This document shows, one piece after another, positions 13,260 through 20,461 of a DNA stretch of 64,000 bases. This DNA is from a virus. The stretch covers positions 91,875 through 155,874 of the IMG/VR virus record IMGVR_UViG_3300034062_004313. One strand, written 5' to 3'. A model generated the notes under the pieces. The model was not told the DNA's origin. It ran no database searches and was given only the letters and a program-made list of their open reading frames with translations. The number at the start of each line of letters is the position of its first letter. Position 1 is the stretch's first letter. The position numbers and the translations under genes are program-made.

Positions 13260-13309
13260 GAATTTAGAAAGAACGTAGCTTTTTTTGGTTTTTGCTGCAT
13301 ATGTTTTTC

Positions 13310-13338
13310 GGAGCCGTTCTCGGCTCTTTTTTCTTTTT
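13310..13338 (+). terminator. Intrinsic terminator ending the capsid module
   Basis: gagccg-ttct-cggctc followed by tttttt. Confidence 0.85.
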
Positions 13339-13367
13339 ATTAACATTTTAAATTGTAATTTTGTATT

Positions 13368-13622
13368 ATGATAATAACAGATAACATATTCTATTTAGAT
13401 AATGGAGTAGAAAGACAAATAAATGTATTTAACGAAAGTGACCCACACTATAGATGTTTTGAATCAGATGGACAGAAACAAATAATCTTTGGAAGAAGTT
13501 CATTTGTAAAAACTGAAAATGGAGAAGTAGATTTCTTCTCTTTAAGCAAAGAAGAAAAAGATAAATTCTGTAATAACACTAATTTTATAAAAACTTATAA
13601 AAAATATGATATACATAGGTAA
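13368..13622 (+). CDS. Hypothetical protein
   Basis: 84 aa ORF just after a TAatTTTG box. Confidence 0.55.
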   Translation: MIITDNIFYLDNGVERQINVFNESDPHYRCFESDGQKQIIFGRSSFVKTENGEVDFFSLSKEEKDKFCNNTNFIKTYKKYDIHR

Positions 13623-13669
13623 AGAATTAAGATGTTGGAAACACGTTAACAATGAATTAACACAACATA

Positions 13670-13701
13670 TTTGATTATATAAAATTATTACACTATATTA
13701 C
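13670..13701 (+). promoter_or_regulatory. Putative promoter of tRNA operon 1
   Basis: TTTG-N20-TATATTAC. Confidence 0.5.
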
Positions 13702-13710
13702 AATATAATT

Positions 13711-13791
13711 ATGAAATACGTAGTAACACATACAACATGTCCACAGTGGTTTACACCGACAATATCGGGAGGGGCTTTGTATGTATACTAA
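13711..13791 (+). CDS. Attenuator leader peptide 1, MKYVVTHTTCPQWFTPTISGGALYVY
   Basis: 12-codon run containing only T/H/C/P/Q/W/F, matching the downstream tRNAs; overlaps the antiterminator strand. Confidence 0.9.
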   Translation: MKYVVTHTTCPQWFTPTISGGALYVY

Positions 13792-13813
13792 GAAATAGCT
13801 GTGTAGTAACATC

Positions 13814-13845
13814 AACCCTCTGAGAAATCGGAGGGTTTTTTATTT
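13814..13845 (+). terminator. Attenuator terminator 1
   Basis: aaccctctga-gaaa-tcggagggtt followed by tttt, directly before tRNA-Pro. Confidence 0.9.
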
Positions 13846-13939
13846 CTAGTTGTGGACGAGAGGTTTATGTCATTAGTCTTGGAAACTAATATCTGCACAC
13901 AGATGGTGTGGGTCAAGGGTTCGACTCCCTTCAACTAGA
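13846..13939 (+). tRNA. tRNA-Pro(UGG) with long variable arm
   Basis: Acceptor ctagttg/caactag; anticodon arm ttagt-ctTGGaa-actaa; T arm aaggg-ttcgact-ccctt. Confidence 0.85.
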
Positions 13940-13949
13940 CTTTTAATTT

Positions 13950-14022
13950 GCCTTACGAAGCTTTTATGGATGAAGTGTACTCTTGTAAAGTACGGAACTG
14001 GACTCGATTTCCAGCTAAGGCT
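13950..14022 (+). tRNA. tRNA-Thr(UGU)
   Basis: gtact-ctTGTaa-agtac; acceptor gcctta/taaggc. Confidence 0.85.
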
Positions 14023-14028
14023 CAAATT

Positions 14029-14101
14029 GGAGAAGAAGCTAACTTGGTAGAAGCGTTAGACTGAAAATCTAAAGGAGTTGGTCCGAAACCAACCTTCTCC
14101 G
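14029..14101 (+). tRNA. tRNA-Phe(GAA)
   Basis: ggagaag/cttctcc; ttaga-ctGAAaa-tctaa. Confidence 0.9.
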
Positions 14102-14103
14102 CT

Positions 14104-14178
14104 AAATACTTAATGAAACAATAAAGGAACAAAGGGGTCCGGGTAGAAATACGTTAGCGCCCATTGATTTAAGTATTT
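14104..14178 (+). ncRNA. Unidentified structured element inside the tRNA operon
   Basis: 10-bp closing stem aaatacttaa/ttaagtattt; inner caat/attg and gggt/gccc. Confidence 0.4.
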
Positions 14179-14183
14179 TTTAT

Positions 14184-14255
14184 TCCTATGTGGTGTAATG
14201 TAACATCCACGCCTTTGAAGCGTTGAGATTGGTGGTTCAAGTCCATCTATAGGAA
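14184..14255 (+). tRNA. tRNA-Gln(UUG)
   Basis: tcctatg/tatagga; acgc-ctTTGaa-gcgt. Confidence 0.85.
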
Positions 14256-14257
14256 CT

Positions 14258-14332
14258 GTCTAAGTGTTCTGACTGGATTCAGATGAATGACTGTGAATTA
14301 TTCAAAAAGGGTTCGAATCCCACTTAGACCCA
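14258..14332 (+). tRNA. tRNA-His(GUG)
   Basis: gtctaag/cttagac plus CCA; gaatga-ctGTGaa-ttattc; short T stem. Confidence 0.8.
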
Positions 14333-14336
14333 ATAT

Positions 14337-14409
14337 ATAGGTACTCATGGCTGGCGTGATAAACAATCTCCAAAATTGTGATTTGTTGAATCGTTCTCAA
14401 CTACCTATG
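14337..14409 (+). tRNA. tRNA-Trp(CCA)
   Basis: ataggta/tacctat, G73; acaat-ctCCAaa-attgt; divergent T loop. Confidence 0.8.
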
Positions 14410-14465
14410 CTTTATAGGTCTATATACCTATATTTATAGATTATAGGTTTTAAAGGCTATAATTT

Positions 14466-14541
14466 GTCCAGATACCTAATATTGATTTTGGGATAGGTCT
14501 GCAACACCTATTAAATATCGGTTTGATTCCGATTCTGGACT
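14466..14541 (+). tRNA. tRNA-Cys(GCA)
   Basis: gtccaga/tctggac, U73; taggt-ctGCAac-accta. Confidence 0.85.
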
Positions 14542-14555
14542 CTATTAAAAATAAA

Positions 14556-14587
14556 TTTTTTTATTTGAAAAAGATTTCGTATATTTG
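14556..14587 (+). promoter_or_regulatory. Bacteroidota-type promoter of tRNA operon 2
   Basis: -7 box TAtaTTTG at 14580-14587. Confidence 0.7.
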
Positions 14588-14612
14588 CTGTATAAATAAT
14601 AAACATTCAACA

Positions 14613-14693
14613 ATGCAACTTATAAATATGATAGTGGATAACGGTATTGGAGCAAACGAGAAGTTTGGCTTCAGGTATTCTATTGTCGTATAA
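14613..14693 (+). CDS. Attenuator leader peptide 2, MQLINMIVDNGIGANEKFGFRYSIVV
   Basis: 14-codon run containing only I/N/M/V/D/G/A/E/K, matching the downstream tRNAs. Confidence 0.9.
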   Translation: MQLINMIVDNGIGANEKFGFRYSIVV

Positions 14694-14714
14694 TTACTTA
14701 CTAACCCGATAAAG

Positions 14715-14745
14715 AATCCTGAGGCCCATCGCTTCGGGATTTTTT
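14715..14745 (+). terminator. Attenuator terminator 2
   Basis: aatcctgaggc-ccatc-gcttcgggatt followed by tttt, before tRNA-Lys. Confidence 0.9.
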
Positions 14746-14749
14746 GTTT

Positions 14750-14824
14750 AATCTCGTAGCAAAATGTGGCTTTGCTTCAGCCTTTTAAGCTGACTAAAAA
14801 TGGGTTCGACTCCCATCGGGATTA
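14750..14824 (+). tRNA. tRNA-Lys(UUU)
   Basis: tcagc-ctTTTaa-gctga; atggg-ttcgact-cccat. Confidence 0.9.
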
Positions 14825-14830
14825 CTAAAT

Positions 14831-14903
14831 GGCTCTTTAGCTCAGTGGTAGAGCTTCGTTTTTACATGACGAGAAAGCACTTGTCCGATTCAAGTAAGAG
14901 CTA
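14831..14903 (+). tRNA. tRNA-Val(UAC)
   Basis: ggctctt/aagagct; tcgtt-ttTACat-gacga. Confidence 0.85.
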
Positions 14904-14904
14904 C

Positions 14905-15234
14905 ATGAAATATATATTAGGAATACTGTTCTTATTAATTATAGGAACAGCAACAAAAACAGGAATTGCAAGTTATTATCATAACAAGTTTCAAGGAAGG
15001 AAAACTGCTAGTGGTGAATTATATGATAAACATAAATTAACAGCAGCTTCTAATCAATATAAACTTGGTGATAGTGTAAGAGTAACAAATACTAAGAATG
15101 GTAAAAGTGTAAATGTTACAGTAAATGACCGTATGGCTAATAATGGAAGACTAATTGATTTAAGTAGAAGTGCTGCTGATAGTCTTGGTTTTATTAAGGA
15201 TGGTTTAGTTGTAGTTAAAGTTAGTATATTATAA
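14905..15234 (+). CDS. rlpA: RlpA-like DPBB lytic transglycosylase with N-terminal signal/TM segment
   Basis: GIASYY...GRKTASGE.YD...LTAA...VRVTN..NGKSV.V.VNDR...IDLSRSAA motif set; start moved downstream of tRNA-Val. Confidence 0.85.
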   Translation: MKYILGILFLLIIGTATKTGIASYYHNKFQGRKTASGELYDKHKLTAASNQYKLGDSVRVTNTKNGKSVNVTVNDRMANNGRLIDLSRSAADSLGFIKDGLVVVKVSIL

Positions 15235-15239
15235 ATATC

Positions 15240-15313
15240 TGTTTTGTAGCTCAGTGGCCTAGAGCGTGAAGCTGTTAACTTCAGGGTCGTGGGTTCGAAT
15301 CCCATCAGGACAG
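15240..15313 (+). tRNA. tRNA-Asn(GUU)
   Basis: tgaag-ctGTTaa-cttca; G73. Confidence 0.92.
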
Positions 15314-15318
15314 CATAT

Positions 15319-15403
15319 TGTGGGATGGTGTAATTGGTAACACGCAAGGCTCATAACCTTGAGACAGAAAATGCTAGCAAGGGTTCGAATCCCTTTCCCG
15401 CAA
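15319..15403 (+). tRNA. tRNA-Met(CAU), initiator-like body, extended variable loop
   Basis: tgtggga/tcccgca; caagg-ctCATaa-ccttg. Confidence 0.85.
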
Positions 15404-15408
15404 CACAA

Positions 15409-15481
15409 GCAGTATAGGCAGATTGGCTTATGCACCTCACTTCCAATGAGGACATGGTGGGTTCGATTCCTACATGCTGCA
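15409..15481 (+). tRNA. tRNA-Gly(UCC)
   Basis: gcagtat/atgctgc; cctca-ctTCCaa-tgagg. Confidence 0.9.
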
Positions 15482-15528
15482 CAAAAATTATATTATGAAA
15501 AATTCTTTAAAAGAAGGTGAAGAGATAT

Positions 15529-15601
15529 ACTCTCATCTTCTAGTTGGTCAGGATAACACACTTTCAATGTGTTGACACGGGTTCAAGCCCCGTTGGGAGT
15601 G
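15529..15601 (+). tRNA. tRNA-Glu(UUC)
   Basis: actctca/tgggagt; acaca-ctTTCaa-tgtgt. Confidence 0.9.
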
Positions 15602-15611
15602 CTTTAAAAAT

Positions 15612-15685
15612 GGTAGATGGGTCTGCTGGATGAAGATGTCGGTCTGTCGAACCGAAGATGATGGGTTTGAATCCCATATCTACCG
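15612..15685 (+). tRNA. tRNA-Asp(GUC)
   Basis: ggtagat/atctacc, G73; tcggt-ctGTCga-accga. Confidence 0.9.
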
Positions 15686-15690
15686 CATTA

Positions 15691-15765
15691 GGACTTGTAG
15701 CCAAGTTGGTAAAGGCCCTTGACTCATAATCAAGAGATGCAATGGTTCGAGACCATTCAAGTCCA
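15691..15765 (+). tRNA. tRNA(CAU), probably Ile2 (lysidine); elongator Met possible
   Basis: ggacttg/caagtcc; cttga-ctCATaa-tcaag; leader 2 contains two ATA codons. Confidence 0.8.
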
Positions 15766-15770
15766 CATAT

Positions 15771-15842
15771 AGGAATATAGTAGAAGGGTTATCACAATTG
15801 ACTGATACTCAATTAATATAGGTTCGAATCCTATTGTTCCTA
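15771..15842 (+). tRNA. tRNA-Ile(GAU)
   Basis: aggaata/tgttcct; attga-ctGATac-tcaat. Confidence 0.88.
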
Positions 15843-15847
15843 CATTT

Positions 15848-15920
15848 GGGGATAAAGCTCTAGCGGATGAGCATCTGCCTTGCACGTAGAAGGTTACGAT
15901 TTCGAGTGTCGTTATCTCCA
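15848..15920 (+). tRNA. tRNA-Ala(UGC)
   Basis: G3.U70 identity pair; tctgc-ctTGCac-gtaga. Confidence 0.9.
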
Positions 15921-15942
15921 CATAGGGGTTCGGAAAATAATT

Positions 15943-15980
15943 AGCTACATCTCTTTATTAATAAGGGTTGTAGCTTTTTT
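15943..15980 (+). terminator. Terminator ending tRNA operon 2
   Basis: agctaca...tgtagct followed by a U tract. Confidence 0.7.
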
Positions 15981-16056
15981 ATTGTCTCAAATATTGTAAT
16001 AATTTGCGACATAATTTATTTTTTGTCAGGTTATAACCTTTCTTTATCTTTGTTTT

Positions 16057-16224
16057 ATGAATTGGCATATACTACCTGTAAATGATATAGAATATCATGA
16101 AGAATCTACCACTTGTAAGTGTGAACCACAAGTAGAATTTATAGAAGGAGATATGCTAATTATACAAAACTCTTTTGATGGTAGAGAAGGAGTTGAATGG
16201 GTAAATGAAATTTTAAATAAATAA
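16057..16224 (+). CDS. Small acidic protein, 55 aa (MNWHILPVNDIEYHEESTTCKCEP...DGRE), absent from the ORF track
   Basis: Has its own promoter TTTG-N19-TAtcTTTG; His/Cys pattern suggests metal binding. Confidence 0.7.
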   Translation: MNWHILPVNDIEYHEESTTCKCEPQVEFIEGDMLIIQNSFDGREGVEWVNEILNK

Positions 16225-16256
16225 TTTGGAAAATTCAAAATAATTTCGTATATTTG
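16225..16256 (+). promoter_or_regulatory. Consensus Bacteroidota promoter of tRNA operon 3
   Basis: TTTG-N20-TAtaTTTG. Confidence 0.85.
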
Positions 16257-16260
16257 CTTT

Positions 16261-16329
16261 ATGAAAACATTATCACTATATAGTTCCTCAAGTTATCTCT
16301 TATTAAGAGACAGGGATTGTATTGTGTAA
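16261..16329 (+). CDS. Attenuator leader peptide 3, MKTLSLYSSSSYLLLRDRDCIV
   Basis: 12-codon run containing only L/S/Y, matching the downstream tRNAs. Confidence 0.9.
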   Translation: MKTLSLYSSSSYLLLRDRDCIV

Positions 16330-16357
16330 ATAGCTATAAGCTTTTAGCTCCCCTAAC

Positions 16358-16389
16358 AATCCCTTGTCTTTCCAGATGAGGGATTTTTT
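16358..16389 (+). terminator. Attenuator terminator 3
   Basis: aatcccttgtct-ttcc-agatgagggatt followed by tttt. Confidence 0.9.
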
Positions 16390-16392
16390 ATT

Positions 16393-16465
16393 GGCTCTAT
16401 GACGTAATCGGCAACCGTCTTGGCTTTAGACCCCAAGTTTTCCAGTTCGAATCTGGATAGAGCTA
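16393..16465 (+). tRNA. tRNA-Leu(UAG)-like, lacking the long variable arm
   Basis: ggctcta/tagagct; ttggc-ttTAGac-cccaa; tccag-ttcgaat-ctgga. Confidence 0.7.
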
Positions 16466-16520
16466 CAAATTAGCAGCCCTCTATGGATAATTCTATTGAC
16501 GAATAGAATATGGGCAAAAT

Positions 16521-16603
16521 ATTCCTGTGGTGAAATGGTGAGACACGGCAGACTTAAAATCTGCTACGGAGAAACGTTGCTGGTTCGAATCCAGTCAGGA
16601 ATA
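16521..16603 (+). tRNA. tRNA-Leu(UAA)
   Basis: gcaga-ctTAAaa-tctgc; long variable arm. Confidence 0.92.
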
Positions 16604-16606
16604 CTT

Positions 16607-16691
16607 AGCAGAATGTCAGAGTGGTTTATTGTGATAGTCTTGAAAACTATTGGGTGTAAAAGCTCCTTGGGTTCGAATCCCAATTTTGCTG
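16607..16691 (+). tRNA. tRNA-Ser(UGA)
   Basis: atagt-ctTGAaa-actat; G73; long variable arm. Confidence 0.92.
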
Positions 16692-16695
16692 CAAT

Positions 16696-16784
16696 AGAAG
16701 ATTGTGTGAGTGGCTTAAACAACCAGTTTGCTAAACTGGCGAGGGATTAAAACACCTCCATTGGTTCAAATCCAATATCTTCTG
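16696..16784 (+). tRNA. tRNA-Ser(GCU)
   Basis: ccagt-ttGCTaa-actgg; G73; long variable arm. Confidence 0.92.
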
Positions 16785-16789
16785 CATAT

Positions 16790-16882
16790 TGTGTTGTAAC
16801 GGCAGTAGACTGTAAATCTACTCTGCATAACAAATTGTCGTACTGGTCTCGCAGTAAGAAGGTTCGAATCCTTTCAACACAA
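16790..16882 (+). tRNA. tRNA-Tyr(GUA), D-armless with oversized variable region
   Basis: tgtgttg/caacaca; gtaga-ctGTAaa-tctac; gaagg-ttcgaat-ccttt. Confidence 0.75.
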
Positions 16883-16908
16883 CATTAACTTATTATTAAC
16901 TATAGACA

Positions 16909-17082
16909 TTTGACTATATAAAGTAAATAGTCTATTTTTGTATTGTACAAATTCCCAACCGTCATAGGAGATTTGTATTTAATTAACAATAACTATATAT
17001 TCGATTGATGTAACTTTGTTCTTAGGAACGCAACTTGACGGTTGGGACCCCTTGTACTTAATTGTATGAGGGGATTTTTTTT
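16909..17082 (+). promoter_or_regulatory. Promoter plus structured leader or small RNA ending in a terminator
   Basis: TTTG-N20-TAttTTTG; perfect 12-bp inverted repeat tcccaaccgtca/tgacggttggga; terminator ccccttgtac/gtatgagggg plus U tract. Confidence 0.65.
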
Positions 17083-17084
17083 GC

Positions 17085-17415
17085 AGACATCCGAGGTTTT
17101 TCTTTCCTTCTTTTACGTCCTCCACAAAAATAAAAGAGTGTCATTAAGATAGTATAGTATATTACACTTGGTATATTATATGATAGGATGTAGAAAAATC
17201 AGCAATGTCTAAGGTGACAACTGGACCTGAACGAAATTATCAGCAAAAACTACATTCCTCCGTGAAAAATAAAATCATCTTATAGCTGATAATTATTTGT
17301 AGATGATTGGCAGGACATGGGAATCTTAGGTTGACAATATGTTTATAGGAGTATGTGTTAACTATAAATACATTATCCCAACAGGGGAAGACCTTGTTCA
17401 GGATAGACCCCCTTA
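17085..17415. ncRNA. Candidate structured non-coding RNA
   Basis: No credible ORF; several long-range helices. Confidence 0.4.
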
Positions 17416-17442
17416 TGTAAATTAACAATAAAATGTAAAACT

Positions 17443-17748
17443 ATGAAAAACCACAAAATGACATCATATCAATTCATGATGTTAATGCAAGAATTACCAA
17501 ATCCAATGTATTATGCTAGAAATGGAGCTAATGTAGGATTTAGAGTAAAAGTAGGATATTTAAAGAAGTCCATTGATAATACTCCTACAATATTAATAAA
17601 TCCTAATTCTCAACCTATGAAGATGGCAGAAGTTGAACAGGTAGAATTTGAATTAGTTCCGAACAATACTATTTGGTATTGGCAACCTGTAGAACCAATT
17701 ACTATAATAACATTAGATAAGAAAGAGTACATTAAAAATTGGGAATAA
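17443..17748 (+). CDS. Hypothetical protein
   Basis: ORF on the coding strand. Confidence 0.6.
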   Translation: MKNHKMTSYQFMMLMQELPNPMYYARNGANVGFRVKVGYLKKSIDNTPTILINPNSQPMKMAEVEQVEFELVPNNTIWYWQPVEPITIITLDKKEYIKNWE

Positions 17749-18056
17749 TGAATATAATAAAATGGTATAAAAGAGTATTTAGAATTCTTACTATAGAAGA
17801 ATGTAAAGAATTAGGATTAGTACATTCTCATAATATATATGGTGATAGTATTAATCATTTAAATTGTAGAAGTATTTGGAAAGATGAAAAGGATAGAACA
17901 TATAGGTGTGAAAGTTTAATACCTACTATAGGAGTACTAGATTTATGGATTTTAAAAATGAAAAATCAAGATAAAGTACAACCAATAACTCAAGAAGAAT
18001 ATAATAAAATAAGAGATGAAGAATTTGAAAGGCTCAAGACTTTATATTCGCCTTAA
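17739..18056 (+). CDS. Hypothetical protein
   Basis: ORF overlapping the upstream stop; start may be 17748. Confidence 0.6.
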   Translation: MGIMNIIKWYKRVFRILTIEECKELGLVHSHNIYGDSINHLNCRSIWKDEKDRTYRCESLIPTIGVLDLWILKMKNQDKVQPITQEEYNKIRDEEFERLKTLYSP

Positions 18057-18093
18057 CAAATAATAGTGTAATTTTGGCTTCTAAATAAAAATC

Positions 18094-18414
18094 ATGAAAG
18101 TATTAACAGAAGGACATTATTATGAACTAGAACATTTTGAAAAAGATGAATCGGGTAGTTCAGAAAGTTTACAATTTATCGAAAAGGTTCCAAAAGGTGA
18201 AGGGAAAGTACAAGATTTAGTAACAGTAAATAATGGAACTACAAATGAAGAAGTTCTTAAAGTTCTAATAAATAGAATGAACTATTTACAAGCAAAATTT
18301 CCATGTAGAGAAAATGCTATTGTAATTACAAAACTTGAAGAAAGTCTAATGTGGTTAGAAAAAAGAACTGTTGATAGAATAGCTAGAAATGTAGAAGGTA
18401 AACAATTAAAATAA
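18094..18414 (+). CDS. tad1: Tad1/Acb2-family anti-defence nucleotide-sponge protein
   Basis: G...E.VL.VLI.RM..LQ..FPCRENA..ITKLEESLMWL.KRT.DRI.RNV.G matches the Tad1 helical-hairpin pattern. Confidence 0.75.
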   Translation: MKVLTEGHYYELEHFEKDESGSSESLQFIEKVPKGEGKVQDLVTVNNGTTNEEVLKVLINRMNYLQAKFPCRENAIVITKLEESLMWLEKRTVDRIARNVEGKQLK

Positions 18415-18422
18415 AATAAACT

Positions 18423-18638
18423 ATGAAAAAACAATTATTTACGTATGCTGTATTATTCCATCAGCATGAAGAGAAAGAGGGAAAATTGGAATACAAAGAA
18501 ACACTTATTCTTGTAGAACCAAAAGTGATTTTAGCAAAGAATAGTAATGAAGTAGCATTCAAAGCTACAAGAGACGTACCAGAACAATATGCAGGATTTT
18601 CAGAAAATGTAGAAATTATAGTACGCCCTTTTAAATAG
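18423..18638 (+). CDS. Small phage protein ending in VRPFK
   Basis: 71 aa ORF. Confidence 0.7.
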   Translation: MKKQLFTYAVLFHQHEEKEGKLEYKETLILVEPKVILAKNSNEVAFKATRDVPEQYAGFSENVEIIVRPFK

Positions 18639-18648
18639 CTCCCCCTTA

Positions 18649-18828
18649 ATGTGGGATAGTGGGAGCAAAGGAGTATGGGAACAATTAGTAGACCCACCTA
18701 AATATAAAAGTACTTTCCAAAATTATATGGGTACAACTACAAATTTAGTAGGACAAGCAATAAACACTTTGACAACAGGAACATCAATATCATATAACAT
18801 GGCAGATGCAATGTCATTCACAAATTAA
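18649..18828 (+). CDS. 59 aa T/S/N-rich ORF, or frameshift extension of the upstream gene
   Basis: The +1 frame is open across the upstream stop. Confidence 0.45.
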   Translation: MWDSGSKGVWEQLVDPPKYKSTFQNYMGTTTNLVGQAINTLTTGTSISYNMADAMSFTN

Positions 18829-18837
18829 AATCAAATT

Positions 18838-19002
18838 ATGAAAACACTAACAAATCTATTTACAAGCAACCCATCTTACATGAAATGGGGTAATGAAAGA
18901 ATTGCAAAAAGAACAGGGCTGAAACCAAAAACAGTAGAGAAATTCAAAAAGAATCCCTTGTATAAGATAATGAAAACCCAATATCTTAACGAGATTAATT
19001 AG
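18838..19002 (+). CDS. Small basic HTH-like protein, 54 aa, absent from the ORF track
   Basis: GNERIAKRTGLKPKTVEKF resembles a helix-turn-helix. Confidence 0.6.
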   Translation: MKTLTNLFTSNPSYMKWGNERIAKRTGLKPKTVEKFKKNPLYKIMKTQYLNEIN

Positions 19003-19012
19003 GAAATGTCGC

Positions 19013-19048
19013 AAAAAAGGCGTATATTGTTATGATATGCGCTTTTTT
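19013..19048 (+). terminator. Terminator overlapping a putative promoter
   Basis: gcgtatat/atatgcgc stem flanked by A6 and T6. Confidence 0.65.
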
Positions 19049-19052
19049 ATTT

Positions 19053-19124
19053 GGCTCCTTAGTTAAATGGATATAACCGCAGAATTCTAATCTGCATTTG
19101 GGAGTTCGATTCTCTCAGGGGCTA
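19053..19124 (+). tRNA. tRNA-Arg(UCU)
   Basis: ggctcct/aggggct; gcaga-atTCTaa-tctgc. Confidence 0.9.
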
Positions 19125-19144
19125 CGAAATCTTAAAAATAAATT

Positions 19145-20461
19145 ATGATTATAACACAAACAATGCAAAAGTTTATTGACAATCCGAAGATGTTAGAGAG
19201 TGGATATTGCTCAAAAGCAAAATTAGCTCAAAGACTTGGAACAACAATAGACGATATTACAGAATCAAGGTTTAAAGTGAAACAAATGATGTCTTCATTA
19301 GACCATGCTCAAGAGTTCTTTAAAGAATTAAAATCAGAAATTGTTAATGAACATACTACAAGAGTAGATAATGAAAAGGGTACTATAACATCGGATGTAG
19401 AAACTACATTTGAACCCAAGAATGATATTGAATTAGCTGAATTACATAAGATTGATTTAACAAAATACAAAATAAGTACATATTGGTCTAAACTAAAGAG
19501 CAATGGTAAATTCACTTCATCTGTATTAGCTACATTAAGAAATATTGATAAGGATATTCCTAAACAAAAAGAATCATTAATAGAAGAAATAGATGAATAT
19601 TTTGGTAGTAAAAAAGCTATTGAAAATTATAGATTCTTCACAAGAGAAATTGATAAGGATAGAAAAACTGCTAAAAATACAGATGGTCAACTATTAGAAA
19701 TATCCATTCCTGATTTACACATTGGTAAAATGTCTCATAGAGAAGAAACAGGGGAAGATTATGATTTAAAAATTGCATCTGCAAGATATAAGAATGCTAT
19801 AACTCAACTATTAAAAACAGCCAATTTAGATAATGTATCTGATATATTACTACCCATTGGTAATGACTTGTTCAATGTAGATAATCAGTTCTCAACTACT
19901 ACAGGTGGTACACCACAGGATTGTGATAGTAGGTTCCACAAGATGGTAGGAGCAGCAAAAGAACTCCTTATAAATACAATAACAGGGTTAAGTGCATTTG
20001 CAAGAGTACATGTTCTTATAGTACCAGGCAATCATGATGAAGTTACAACATTTATGTTAGGTGAAATATTAGAAGCATGGTTTCATAATGATAGTAACAT
20101 AACTGTAAATAATACAGCAAAACTTAGAAAATACTTCCAATTTGGAAAGAATTCTTTCCTTTATACTCATGGAGACAAAGAAAAACATGGGGATTTAGGA
20201 TTGATATTTGCTACAGAAGAACCTAGACTTTGGGCTGATACTAAATACAGATTTGTAAAACTTGGTCATCTTCACAAGCAAAAGAAAATAGAATATATAA
20301 CAACAGACACACTTCAAGGGTTCCAAATAGAAATACTTCCATCACTAAGTTCTGCTGATAAGTGGCATTATGGAAAAGGTTTCTTAGGAGCAAAGCAAGC
20401 AAAAGCCTATCTCTATGATAAAGAACTTGGGGAAATTGCACAGTATACACACACTGTTTAA
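19145..20461 (+). CDS. Calcineurin-like metallophosphoesterase with N-terminal HTH-like segment
   Basis: DLH, GND, GNHD, HGD and GHLH motifs in canonical order. Confidence 0.88.
   Translation: MIITQTMQKFIDNPKMLESGYCSKAKLAQRLGTTIDDITESRFKVKQMMSSLDHAQEFFKELKSEIVNEHTTRVDNEKGTITSDVETTFEPKNDIELAELHKIDLTKYKISTYWSKLKSNGKFTSSVLATLRNIDKDIPKQKESLIEEIDEYFGSKKAIENYRFFTREIDKDRKTAKNTDGQLLEISIPDLHIGKMSHREETGEDYDLKIASARYKNAITQLLKTANLDNVSDILLPIGNDLFNVDNQFSTTTGGTPQDCDSRFHKMVGAAKELLINTITGLSAFARVHVLIVPGNHDEVTTFMLGEILEAWFHNDSNITVNNTAKLRKYFQFGKNSFLYTHGDKEKHGDLGLIFATEEPRLWADTKYRFVKLGHLHKQKKIEYITTDTLQGFQIEILPSLSSADKWHYGKGFLGAKQAKAYLYDKELGEIAQYTHTV

Follow-up and report, generated by a model that had tools for sequence, protein, structure and literature searches.

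What phage tRNAs are for has been debated for decades; codon compensation, the turnover of host tRNAs and evasion of tRNA-cleaving defences have all been put forward (PMC10264068, PMC12409363). The expression of phage tRNA genes has hardly been addressed so far. The window analyzed here is a stretch of 64 kb (64,000 nucleotides), the final part of an IMG/VR virus record of 155,874 bp that is rated complete; all positions refer to this window unless stated otherwise. Its GC content is 29.8%, and DNA of this virus is present in lake and freshwater metagenomes; no RNA run was among the datasets listed as containing it. The original prediction took 16225–16389 for an attenuator (attenuator 3) that senses the supply of Leu, Ser and Tyr tRNAs. 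This reading is supported by the anatomy of the element, fold modelling, two sister units and the covariation between leader codons and tRNA genes across phages. With a probability of roughly 80%, the stretch is a ribosome-mediated (leader-peptide) transcription attenuator gating the operon of tRNA-Leu (UAG), tRNA-Leu (UAA), tRNA-Ser (UGA), tRNA-Ser (GCU) and tRNA-Tyr (GUA). As judged from sequence, synthesis of these tRNAs by the phage is probably confined to times when they are in short supply for ribosomes.

Predicted promoter, leader ORF and switch helices of attenuator 3

The stretch begins with the elements TTTG and TAnnTTTG, separated by 20 nt (Table 1), which we take to be the −33/−7 layout of Bacteroidota sigma-A promoters. 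The identical 20-nt spacing was found at 8 of the 20 leaders examined in other phages, and most leaders begin 4–7 nt downstream of the TAnnTTTG box. Since the −7 box of attenuator 3 ends so close to the ATG, transcription probably begins on the start codon or directly beside it, and the leader mRNA is probably leaderless, without a Shine-Dalgarno sequence. An exact 16-mer spans the −7 boxes of attenuators 2 and 3 (14574–14589 and 16243–16258). It is shared by 70 IMG/VR contigs, many of which have it 3–25 nt before the start of a long ORF, and none of the 70 has tRNAs near by; this distribution fits a generic strong promoter. The gene upstream of the promoter (16057–16224) has 55 codons and is a mobile small gene. 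Among the contigs carrying its homologues, only L095, a Logan contig of 3.8 kb, has the tRNA array; the 55-residue ORF next to that array is 89% identical to the one in the window.

The leader ORF contains the predicted run of Leu, Ser and Tyr codons, which was found at codons 4–15 (tta tca cta tat agt tcc tca agt tat ctc tta tta). Assigned to the anticodon boxes of the downstream genes, the run samples UAA three times, UAG twice, UGA three times, GCU twice and GUA twice, with the caveat that its TCC and CTC codons require four-way wobble by U34.

Three helices can form around the end of this ORF, and the two named in the original prediction, the protector with its inner hairpin and the antiterminator, were recovered at their predicted places. 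The protector belongs to the minimum-energy fold of the whole leader (z −4.3). The antiterminator reached a z of −4.6, and 0 of 200 shuffles were as good. The intrinsic terminator was also called by an independent terminator scan and, together with its T tract, ends 3 nt before the first tRNA gene. Because the antiterminator overlaps the 3' strand of the protector and the 5' arm of the terminator, the helices are mutually exclusive.

Table 1. Positions of attenuator 3, its tRNA bank and the sister attenuators in the window, and composition of the tRNA banks in Cellulophaga and Maribacter phages.
Feature	Position	Strand	Details
−33 promoter element TTTG	16225–16228	+	20 nt upstream of −7 box
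−7 promoter element TAnnTTTG	16249–16256	+	ends 4 nt before ATG at 16261
Leader ORF, 22 codons	16261–16329	+	ORF call; start and stop codons present
Sensor run, codons 4–15	16270–16305	+	12 consecutive codons, only Leu/Ser/Tyr
Protector (1:2)	16270–16288 with 16311–16329	+	−16.3 kcal/mol; inner hairpin 16296–16310
Antiterminator (2:3)	16306–16320 with 16356–16371	+	−22.2 kcal/mol; 15 bp, one bulge
Intrinsic terminator (3:4)	16358–16369 with 16374–16385, T tract to 16389	+	−14.6 kcal/mol
tRNA-Leu (UAG)	16393–16466	+	74 nt, short variable arm; ARAGORN
tRNA-Leu (UAA)	16521–16604	+	ARAGORN
tRNA-Ser (UGA)	16607–16692	+	ARAGORN
tRNA-Ser (GCU)	16696–16785	+	ARAGORN
tRNA-Tyr (GUA), atypical	16790–16882	+	Infernal 34.6 bits, cut-off 29
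Sister attenuator 1	13711–13845	+	26-codon ORF 13711–13791, terminator 13814–13837
Sister attenuator 2	14613–14748	+	26-codon ORF 14613–14693, terminator near 14716–14745
Bank A (Cellulophaga/Maribacter type)			Pro, Glu, Gln, His, Leu, Arg-ACG
Bank B (Cellulophaga/Maribacter type)			Ala, Lys, Ile, Gly, Met, Asp, Thr, Val, Arg-UCU
Bank C (Cellulophaga type)			Tyr, Ser, Asn, Trp, Phe, Cys

The influence of a translating ribosome was modelled by removing the covered RNA up to 13 nt past the first base of the A site and computing the probability of the terminator stem. In silico, the terminator of attenuator 3 had a probability of 0.94 without a ribosome. This value was predicted to fall to 0.05 or less with the A site at codons 3–12 and to be at least 0.94 from codon 13 to the stop codon. 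With the 13-nt leading edge, the last three Leu codons of the run are too near region 2 to antiterminate. Attenuator 2 and the L095 homologue switched like attenuator 3 in this model, except that in L095 the antiterminator was favoured without a ribosome (terminator probability 0.09). For attenuator 1 and several homologues (J1, C1 and C2), the terminator was predicted at every ribosome position at equilibrium, and their alternative helix appeared only in a co-transcriptional proxy, in which the RNA is folded before the 3' arm of the terminator exists. In this proxy, the 5' arm of the terminator was held in the alternative helix until the edge of the ribosome cleared the sensor run, and was free thereafter, in all ten units. 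Nine of the ten attenuators have a terminator of −12.9 to −15.3 kcal/mol located 44–56 nt past the stop codon, ranges that exclude the tenth unit (C2), which needed the second T run.

The tRNA cluster and the match between leaders and banks

According to Infernal, the whole genome carries 20 tRNA genes in a single cluster (window positions 13846–19124). Three leader/terminator units are present in the window, each ahead of its own tRNA bank, and the amino-acid sets of the three banks are disjoint (7 + 9 + 3 = 19). The tRNA-Arg (UCU) gene is solitary, at 19053, outside the three banks.

In bank 3, the tRNA-Tyr (GUA) gene was missed by ARAGORN. Its D arm is cut to about 5 nt and its variable insert measures 33 nt. 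The gene is kept in L095 (2524–2620), where the acceptor stem has undergone a compensatory change. The bacterial class II tRNAs are those for Leu, Ser and Tyr. The claim that bank 3 is exactly this class II set is correct with regard to the amino acids; by tRNA structure it fails, given the 74-nt tRNA-Leu (UAG) with its short variable arm.

Short tRNA-Leu (UAG) genes of 73–76 nt, which lack the long variable arm and are unusual for a bacterial-type tRNA-Leu, were also seen in L095 (2175–2250), L094 (5530–5603), L114 (5476–5551) and L129 (5972–6044). By its anticodon, the short tRNA is a putative Leu acceptor. One metagenome contig (run X8) joins position 16466 to 16517 and skips the 50-nt spacer between the two Leu genes; this junction represents natural variation in length.

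Sister attenuators 1 and 2 were compared with attenuator 3 (Table 1). Attenuator 1 precedes the Pro, Thr, Phe, Gln, His, Trp and Cys tRNAs, and its leader has a run of 12 codons for exactly Thr, His, Cys, Pro, Gln, Trp and Phe, i.e., all seven and no others. In this bank, the Thr and Trp tRNAs were called only by relaxed ARAGORN, and the His tRNA, with 27.5 bits, was just below the Rfam cut-off. Attenuator 2 precedes the Lys, Val, Asn, Met, Gly, Glu, Asp, Met, Ile and Ala tRNAs, and its run of 14 codons contains all nine amino acids of the bank and no others. The 503 other ATG ORFs of 15–60 codons in the window served as controls. Against runs of 12, 14 and 12 codons in attenuators 1–3, the longest corresponding runs in the controls were 6, 10 and 7 codons; none of the 503 control ORFs has a Leu/Ser/Tyr run longer than 7, and the fixed-position probability of the run of attenuator 3 is about 2e-7. 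Tested against the banks of the other leaders, runs were short: the window leaders gave 12–14 codons for their own bank and 1–3 for other banks. The same applied to every leader in the four genomes with three banks each, with own-bank runs of 7–16 codons and other-bank runs of 1–5.

The design recurs in other arrays. The close relative L095 carries the attenuator 3 unit, in which the promoter and all helix strands are invariant; the three substitutions in its run all remain within Leu/Ser/Tyr and lie at unpaired positions. The 'Leptolyngbya' phage Lbo-JY46 (PP438436.1) has a tRNA array syntenic with that of the window and three leaders. Its bank of Leu, Leu and Ser tRNAs has a leader with a Tyr/Ser/Leu run; this leader has Tyr and AGT codons, yet no Tyr or Ser-GCU gene lies behind it. 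Its bank of Pro, Thr, Phe, Gln, His, Arg-ACG and Trp tRNAs is matched by a run of 11 codons for these seven amino acids and no others. This version of the run includes Arg and no Cys, whereas attenuator 1 of the window includes Cys and no Arg; in Lbo-JY46, the Cys tRNA and several Cys codons are both in the third unit.

Several side observations concern the cluster and its relatives. In Lbo-JY46 (L094; 116582–125312, reverse complement), Bacteroidota-type promoters (TTTG, 20 nt, TAnnTTTG) stand before the leaders, and its cyanobacterial (Leptolyngbya) host assignment may be worth a second look. Within tRNA bank 2 of the window, immediately before the tRNA-Asn gene, lies a 109-residue gene (14905–15234) with a DPBB_1 (RlpA-like lytic transglycosylase) domain (E 1.9e-17); it shares 56% identity with a gene at the same place in Lbo-JY46. 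A tRNA-sized insert of 80 nt without a tRNA call (14105–14183) separates the Phe and Gln genes, which are adjacent in Lbo-JY46, and may be a decayed tRNA. Long variable-region inserts are present in tRNA-Pro (13846–13940, 95 nt) and in one CAU tRNA (15319–15404, 86 nt). The leader of bank 2 has two ATA codons, and one of the two CAU tRNAs may be Ile2 (lysidine). Downstream of bank 3, at 16926–17095, a TAnnTTTG-like box precedes roughly 150 nt that contain a long-range stem and, at 17048–17073, a strong terminator (fold z −4.1). This region, which has no Rfam match and is missing from L095, may represent a small RNA or else a 3' structure of the operon. Ahead of the lone tRNA-Arg (UCU) gene, at 18838–19052, a 54-codon ORF that begins with Met-Lys-Thr like the leaders and has two AGA codons is followed by a terminator-like hairpin; a clear sensor run was not seen in this ORF. 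Apart from tRNAs, no match to the T-box (RF00230) or any other Rfam family was obtained for 13300–19300 at E values up to 1.

A DNA search of the GenBank phage collection found no close relatives of the window, and the relatives obtained through a 438-residue neighbour protein (32–37% identical) have no tRNA array. With the DPBB gene as marker, eight IMG/VR loci were obtained, all without tRNA arrays. Exact-pattern scans of viral and metagenome contigs (antiterminator plus terminator; Tyr anticodon arm) gave no matches. The metagenome contigs that matched the locus were identical fragments or host tRNA look-alikes, with no usable leader variation.

A different partition into banks was found in the Cellulophaga phages phi17:2, phi4:1, phi38:1 and Calle_1 and in the Maribacter phage Panino (Table 1). 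Each of their leaders spells the set of its own bank; Panino has the bank A and bank B units only. Cellulophaga phage phi10:1 and Tenacibaculum phage Gundel_1 have one unit each, of the bank C type. Leu, Thr, Asn and Glu belong to different banks in the window lineage and in the Cellulophaga phages, and the leaders follow. Isoacceptors are followed as well: Arg codons are CGN in the leaders of Arg-ACG banks and AGA in those of Arg-UCU banks, and for 49 of 59 Leu, Ser and Arg run codons the same bank contains a tRNA that serves their codon box. In Panino, two AGA codons have no Arg-UCU gene to match, and among the tRNA calls overall several are weak. In phi17:2, the second attenuator (L114 5735–5935, annotated gp077) repeats the 40-nt promoter of the first unit and has no ATG; thus, its sensor frame must start at GTG, TTG or ATA.

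An independent occurrence was found in Caulobacter phage phiCbK. There, a 45-codon ORF contains a 35-residue run drawn from the seven amino acids that the next 13 tRNAs carry (fixed-position probability 4e-14), and a 32-codon ORF has a matching run for the next bank. Both leaders are followed by a terminator that was annotated by the depositors. Thus, the design is not confined to phages of Bacteroidota. Altogether, the match between leader and bank holds in banks of at least eight phages besides those of the window. A crude screen of a small panel found no such leaders in Mycobacterium phage Bxz1, in the crAss-like Kehishuvirus 'tikkala' or in Flavobacterium phage immuto, which has few tRNAs. 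Vibrio phage 1.244.A was outside the effective screen, as ARAGORN missed its annotated Arg, Met and Gly tRNA genes.

The wider comparison bears on how banks are composed. It had been proposed that banks may be grouped by tRNA structure (class II) or by the nuclease that targets the tRNAs, with conservation in related phages as a check. In the Cellulophaga phages, Leu is placed apart from Ser and Tyr; the Maribacter and Tenacibaculum phages and phiCbK, in whose bank Leu and Ser stand alongside Pro, Thr, Lys, His and Ala, also depart from the Leu/Ser/Tyr set. This set was found only in the lineage of the window, L095 and Lbo-JY46. Given the split of class II in other phages and the short arm of tRNA-Leu (UAG), grouping by tRNA structure is not supported.

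Proposed mechanism and alternative explanations

The following sequence of events is proposed. Transcription would begin at or next to the ATG of the 22-codon ORF, and a ribosome would load immediately. If Leu, Ser and Tyr codons are decoded fast, the ribosome would reach the end of the ORF and cover region 2 (16306–16320), upon which the terminator (16358–16385) would form and RNA polymerase would halt short of the first tRNA gene. A shortage of any one of the five aminoacyl-tRNA species would instead make the ribosome stall within the run. The stall would melt the protector and leave region 2 free to pair with the 5' arm of the terminator; with the antiterminator formed, the polymerase would read through and the tRNAs would be made. 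Since tRNA output would relieve the stall, each bank would be under negative feedback from its own products. Together, the three units of the window would control all tRNA genes of the phage but Arg-UCU. The promoter, translation of the ORF, ribosome–polymerase coupling, the direction of the response and its physiological trigger are all inferred from sequence; coupling and leaderless initiation in the host enter the scheme as assumptions.

With respect to the trigger, the sensor by itself cannot tell the loss of a tRNA from amino-acid starvation. The attenuator could thus work as proposed with host amino-acid starvation, i.e., uncharged tRNA, as its natural signal instead of a shortage of tRNA. 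The device reads the decoding rate, which depends on charged tRNA, and amino-acid supply is what classical attenuators respond to. However, additional tRNA does not relieve amino-acid starvation, so that feedback on this signal would be futile, and the leaders track isoacceptors, as seen from CGN and AGA codons in the Arg-ACG and Arg-UCU leaders and from the sampling of both Leu and both Ser boxes. Starvation as the natural signal is therefore considered quite unlikely.

The direction of the response might also be the opposite, with stalling promoting termination through ribosome–polymerase uncoupling or Rho and the tRNA genes being shut off in starvation, similar to stringent control. Starved bacteria down-regulate tRNA synthesis, which would agree with such a logic; moreover, the folds are predictions, and the default of L095 is read-through. 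The geometry argues otherwise: a ribosome that has stalled in the run leaves region 2 just ahead of it, and one at the stop codon covers this region, an arrangement that favours antitermination upon stalling and is conserved in 10 of 10 units tested. In addition, the stop codon is located 28 nt before the terminator stem, and a terminating ribosome therefore cannot melt the terminator. An inverted response is judged very unlikely.

A further explanation holds that the ORF encodes a functional small peptide, or that its translation serves to stabilize or process the transcript, the match to the tRNAs being secondary. Such ORFs have been annotated as genes, e.g., gp077 of phi17:2 and gp335 of phiCbK, and trans-acting leader peptides such as peTrpL provide a precedent (PMC7298713). 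What is conserved among the phages, however, is not the peptide sequence but only the membership in the set and the position relative to the switch, and the 3' portion of each ORF is under constraint as part of RNA helices; for peptides of 20–45 residues, no Pfam family or homologue is expected. A role of this kind is highly improbable. That the locus merely combines the ordinary terminator of the upstream 55-codon gene, expected after 16057–16224 in any case, with a chance Leu/Ser/Tyr-rich ORF ahead of constitutive tRNAs is scarcely credible, even though so AT-rich a genome abounds in short ORFs and in TTA, TAT and TCA codons, because no control ORF reached the observed run, the match extends to all three window banks and at least eight other phages, a promoter-like element separates the upstream gene from the ORF, and the antiterminator complementarity lies far outside that of shuffles.

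Ribosome-mediated attenuation in response to tRNA supply thus remains the preferred reading. What the three attenuators might guard against can be proposed only tentatively. They may act as a counter-defence sensor that detects, bank by bank, the loss of host tRNAs to anticodon nucleases or other tRNA-targeting immunity and then releases replacement tRNAs only for the affected set; the partition into banks in each lineage would then reflect the tRNA-targeting systems of its hosts. This extension is possible but doubtful.

Comparison with known attenuators

If the mechanism is true, phages monitor decoding capacity in real time, replenishing only those tRNAs that are lacking, and the competing hypotheses on phage tRNAs become directly testable with simple reporters. 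Cultured systems with the same design, namely Cellulophaga baltica with phi38:1 or phi17:2 and Caulobacter with phiCbK, bring such experiments within reach. The units also represent compact natural parts for tRNA-responsive gene control.

In the full-text literature that is searchable without subscription, no description of attenuators ahead of phage tRNA genes was found, and neither the transcriptome paper on phi38:1 nor the genome paper on phiCbK describes such a regulator. Unannotated units with promoter, matching ORF, terminator and bank are present in phi17:2, phi4:1, phi38:1, Calle_1, phi10:1, Panino, Gundel_1, Lbo-JY46 and phiCbK. They differ from the units of the window in the partition of amino acids and in helix sequences; phiCbK differs further in its GC-rich genome and its longer leaders of 32–45 codons.

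T-box riboswitches likewise report tRNA status through a choice between terminator and antiterminator in a 5' leader. They bind uncharged tRNA directly, by means of a specifier codon and the conserved T-box sequence and without translation, whereas the leader described here has an ORF with start codon, stop codon and 12 sensor codons. Closer in mechanism is the pheST operon of E. coli with its pheM leader, in which a component of the translation apparatus is also controlled by leader-peptide attenuation. There, however, the target is an aminoacyl-tRNA synthetase that serves a single amino acid and is encoded by a cell; here, it is tRNA genes.

The closest likeness is to the trpL, hisL, leuL, pheL, thrL and ilvL leaders of Proteobacteria, which also consist of a short translated leader with a block of regulatory codons. 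As in trpL-type attenuators, overlapping helices 1:2, 2:3 and 3:4 end in an intrinsic terminator. The logic is that of the trp attenuator, where fast decoding leads to termination and stalling to read-through, although here it has been modelled only. As in thrL and ilvL, one leader would sense several amino acids. To our knowledge, all described leader-peptide attenuators control genes for amino-acid biosynthesis or aminoacyl-tRNA synthetases, whereas the genes behind attenuator 3 are five tRNA genes. Compared with the biosynthetic attenuators, tRNAs and not enzymes would be regulated, and the product would act directly on the sensor. Furthermore, the units are viral, their sensors comprise up to 9–11 amino acids and distinguish isoacceptors, and a Bacteroidota-type promoter probably gives rise to a leaderless mRNA without a Shine-Dalgarno sequence. 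Leader-peptide attenuation would thereby be extended to non-coding products, to sensors of such breadth and isoacceptor resolution, and to Bacteroidota, where initiation is independent of Shine-Dalgarno sequences and here apparently leaderless. In summary, the mechanism is that of classical ribosome-mediated attenuation; the regulated product, namely tRNA, is new, and the units differ further in being viral, in how many amino acids and which isoacceptors their sensors resolve, and in their probable leaderless start.
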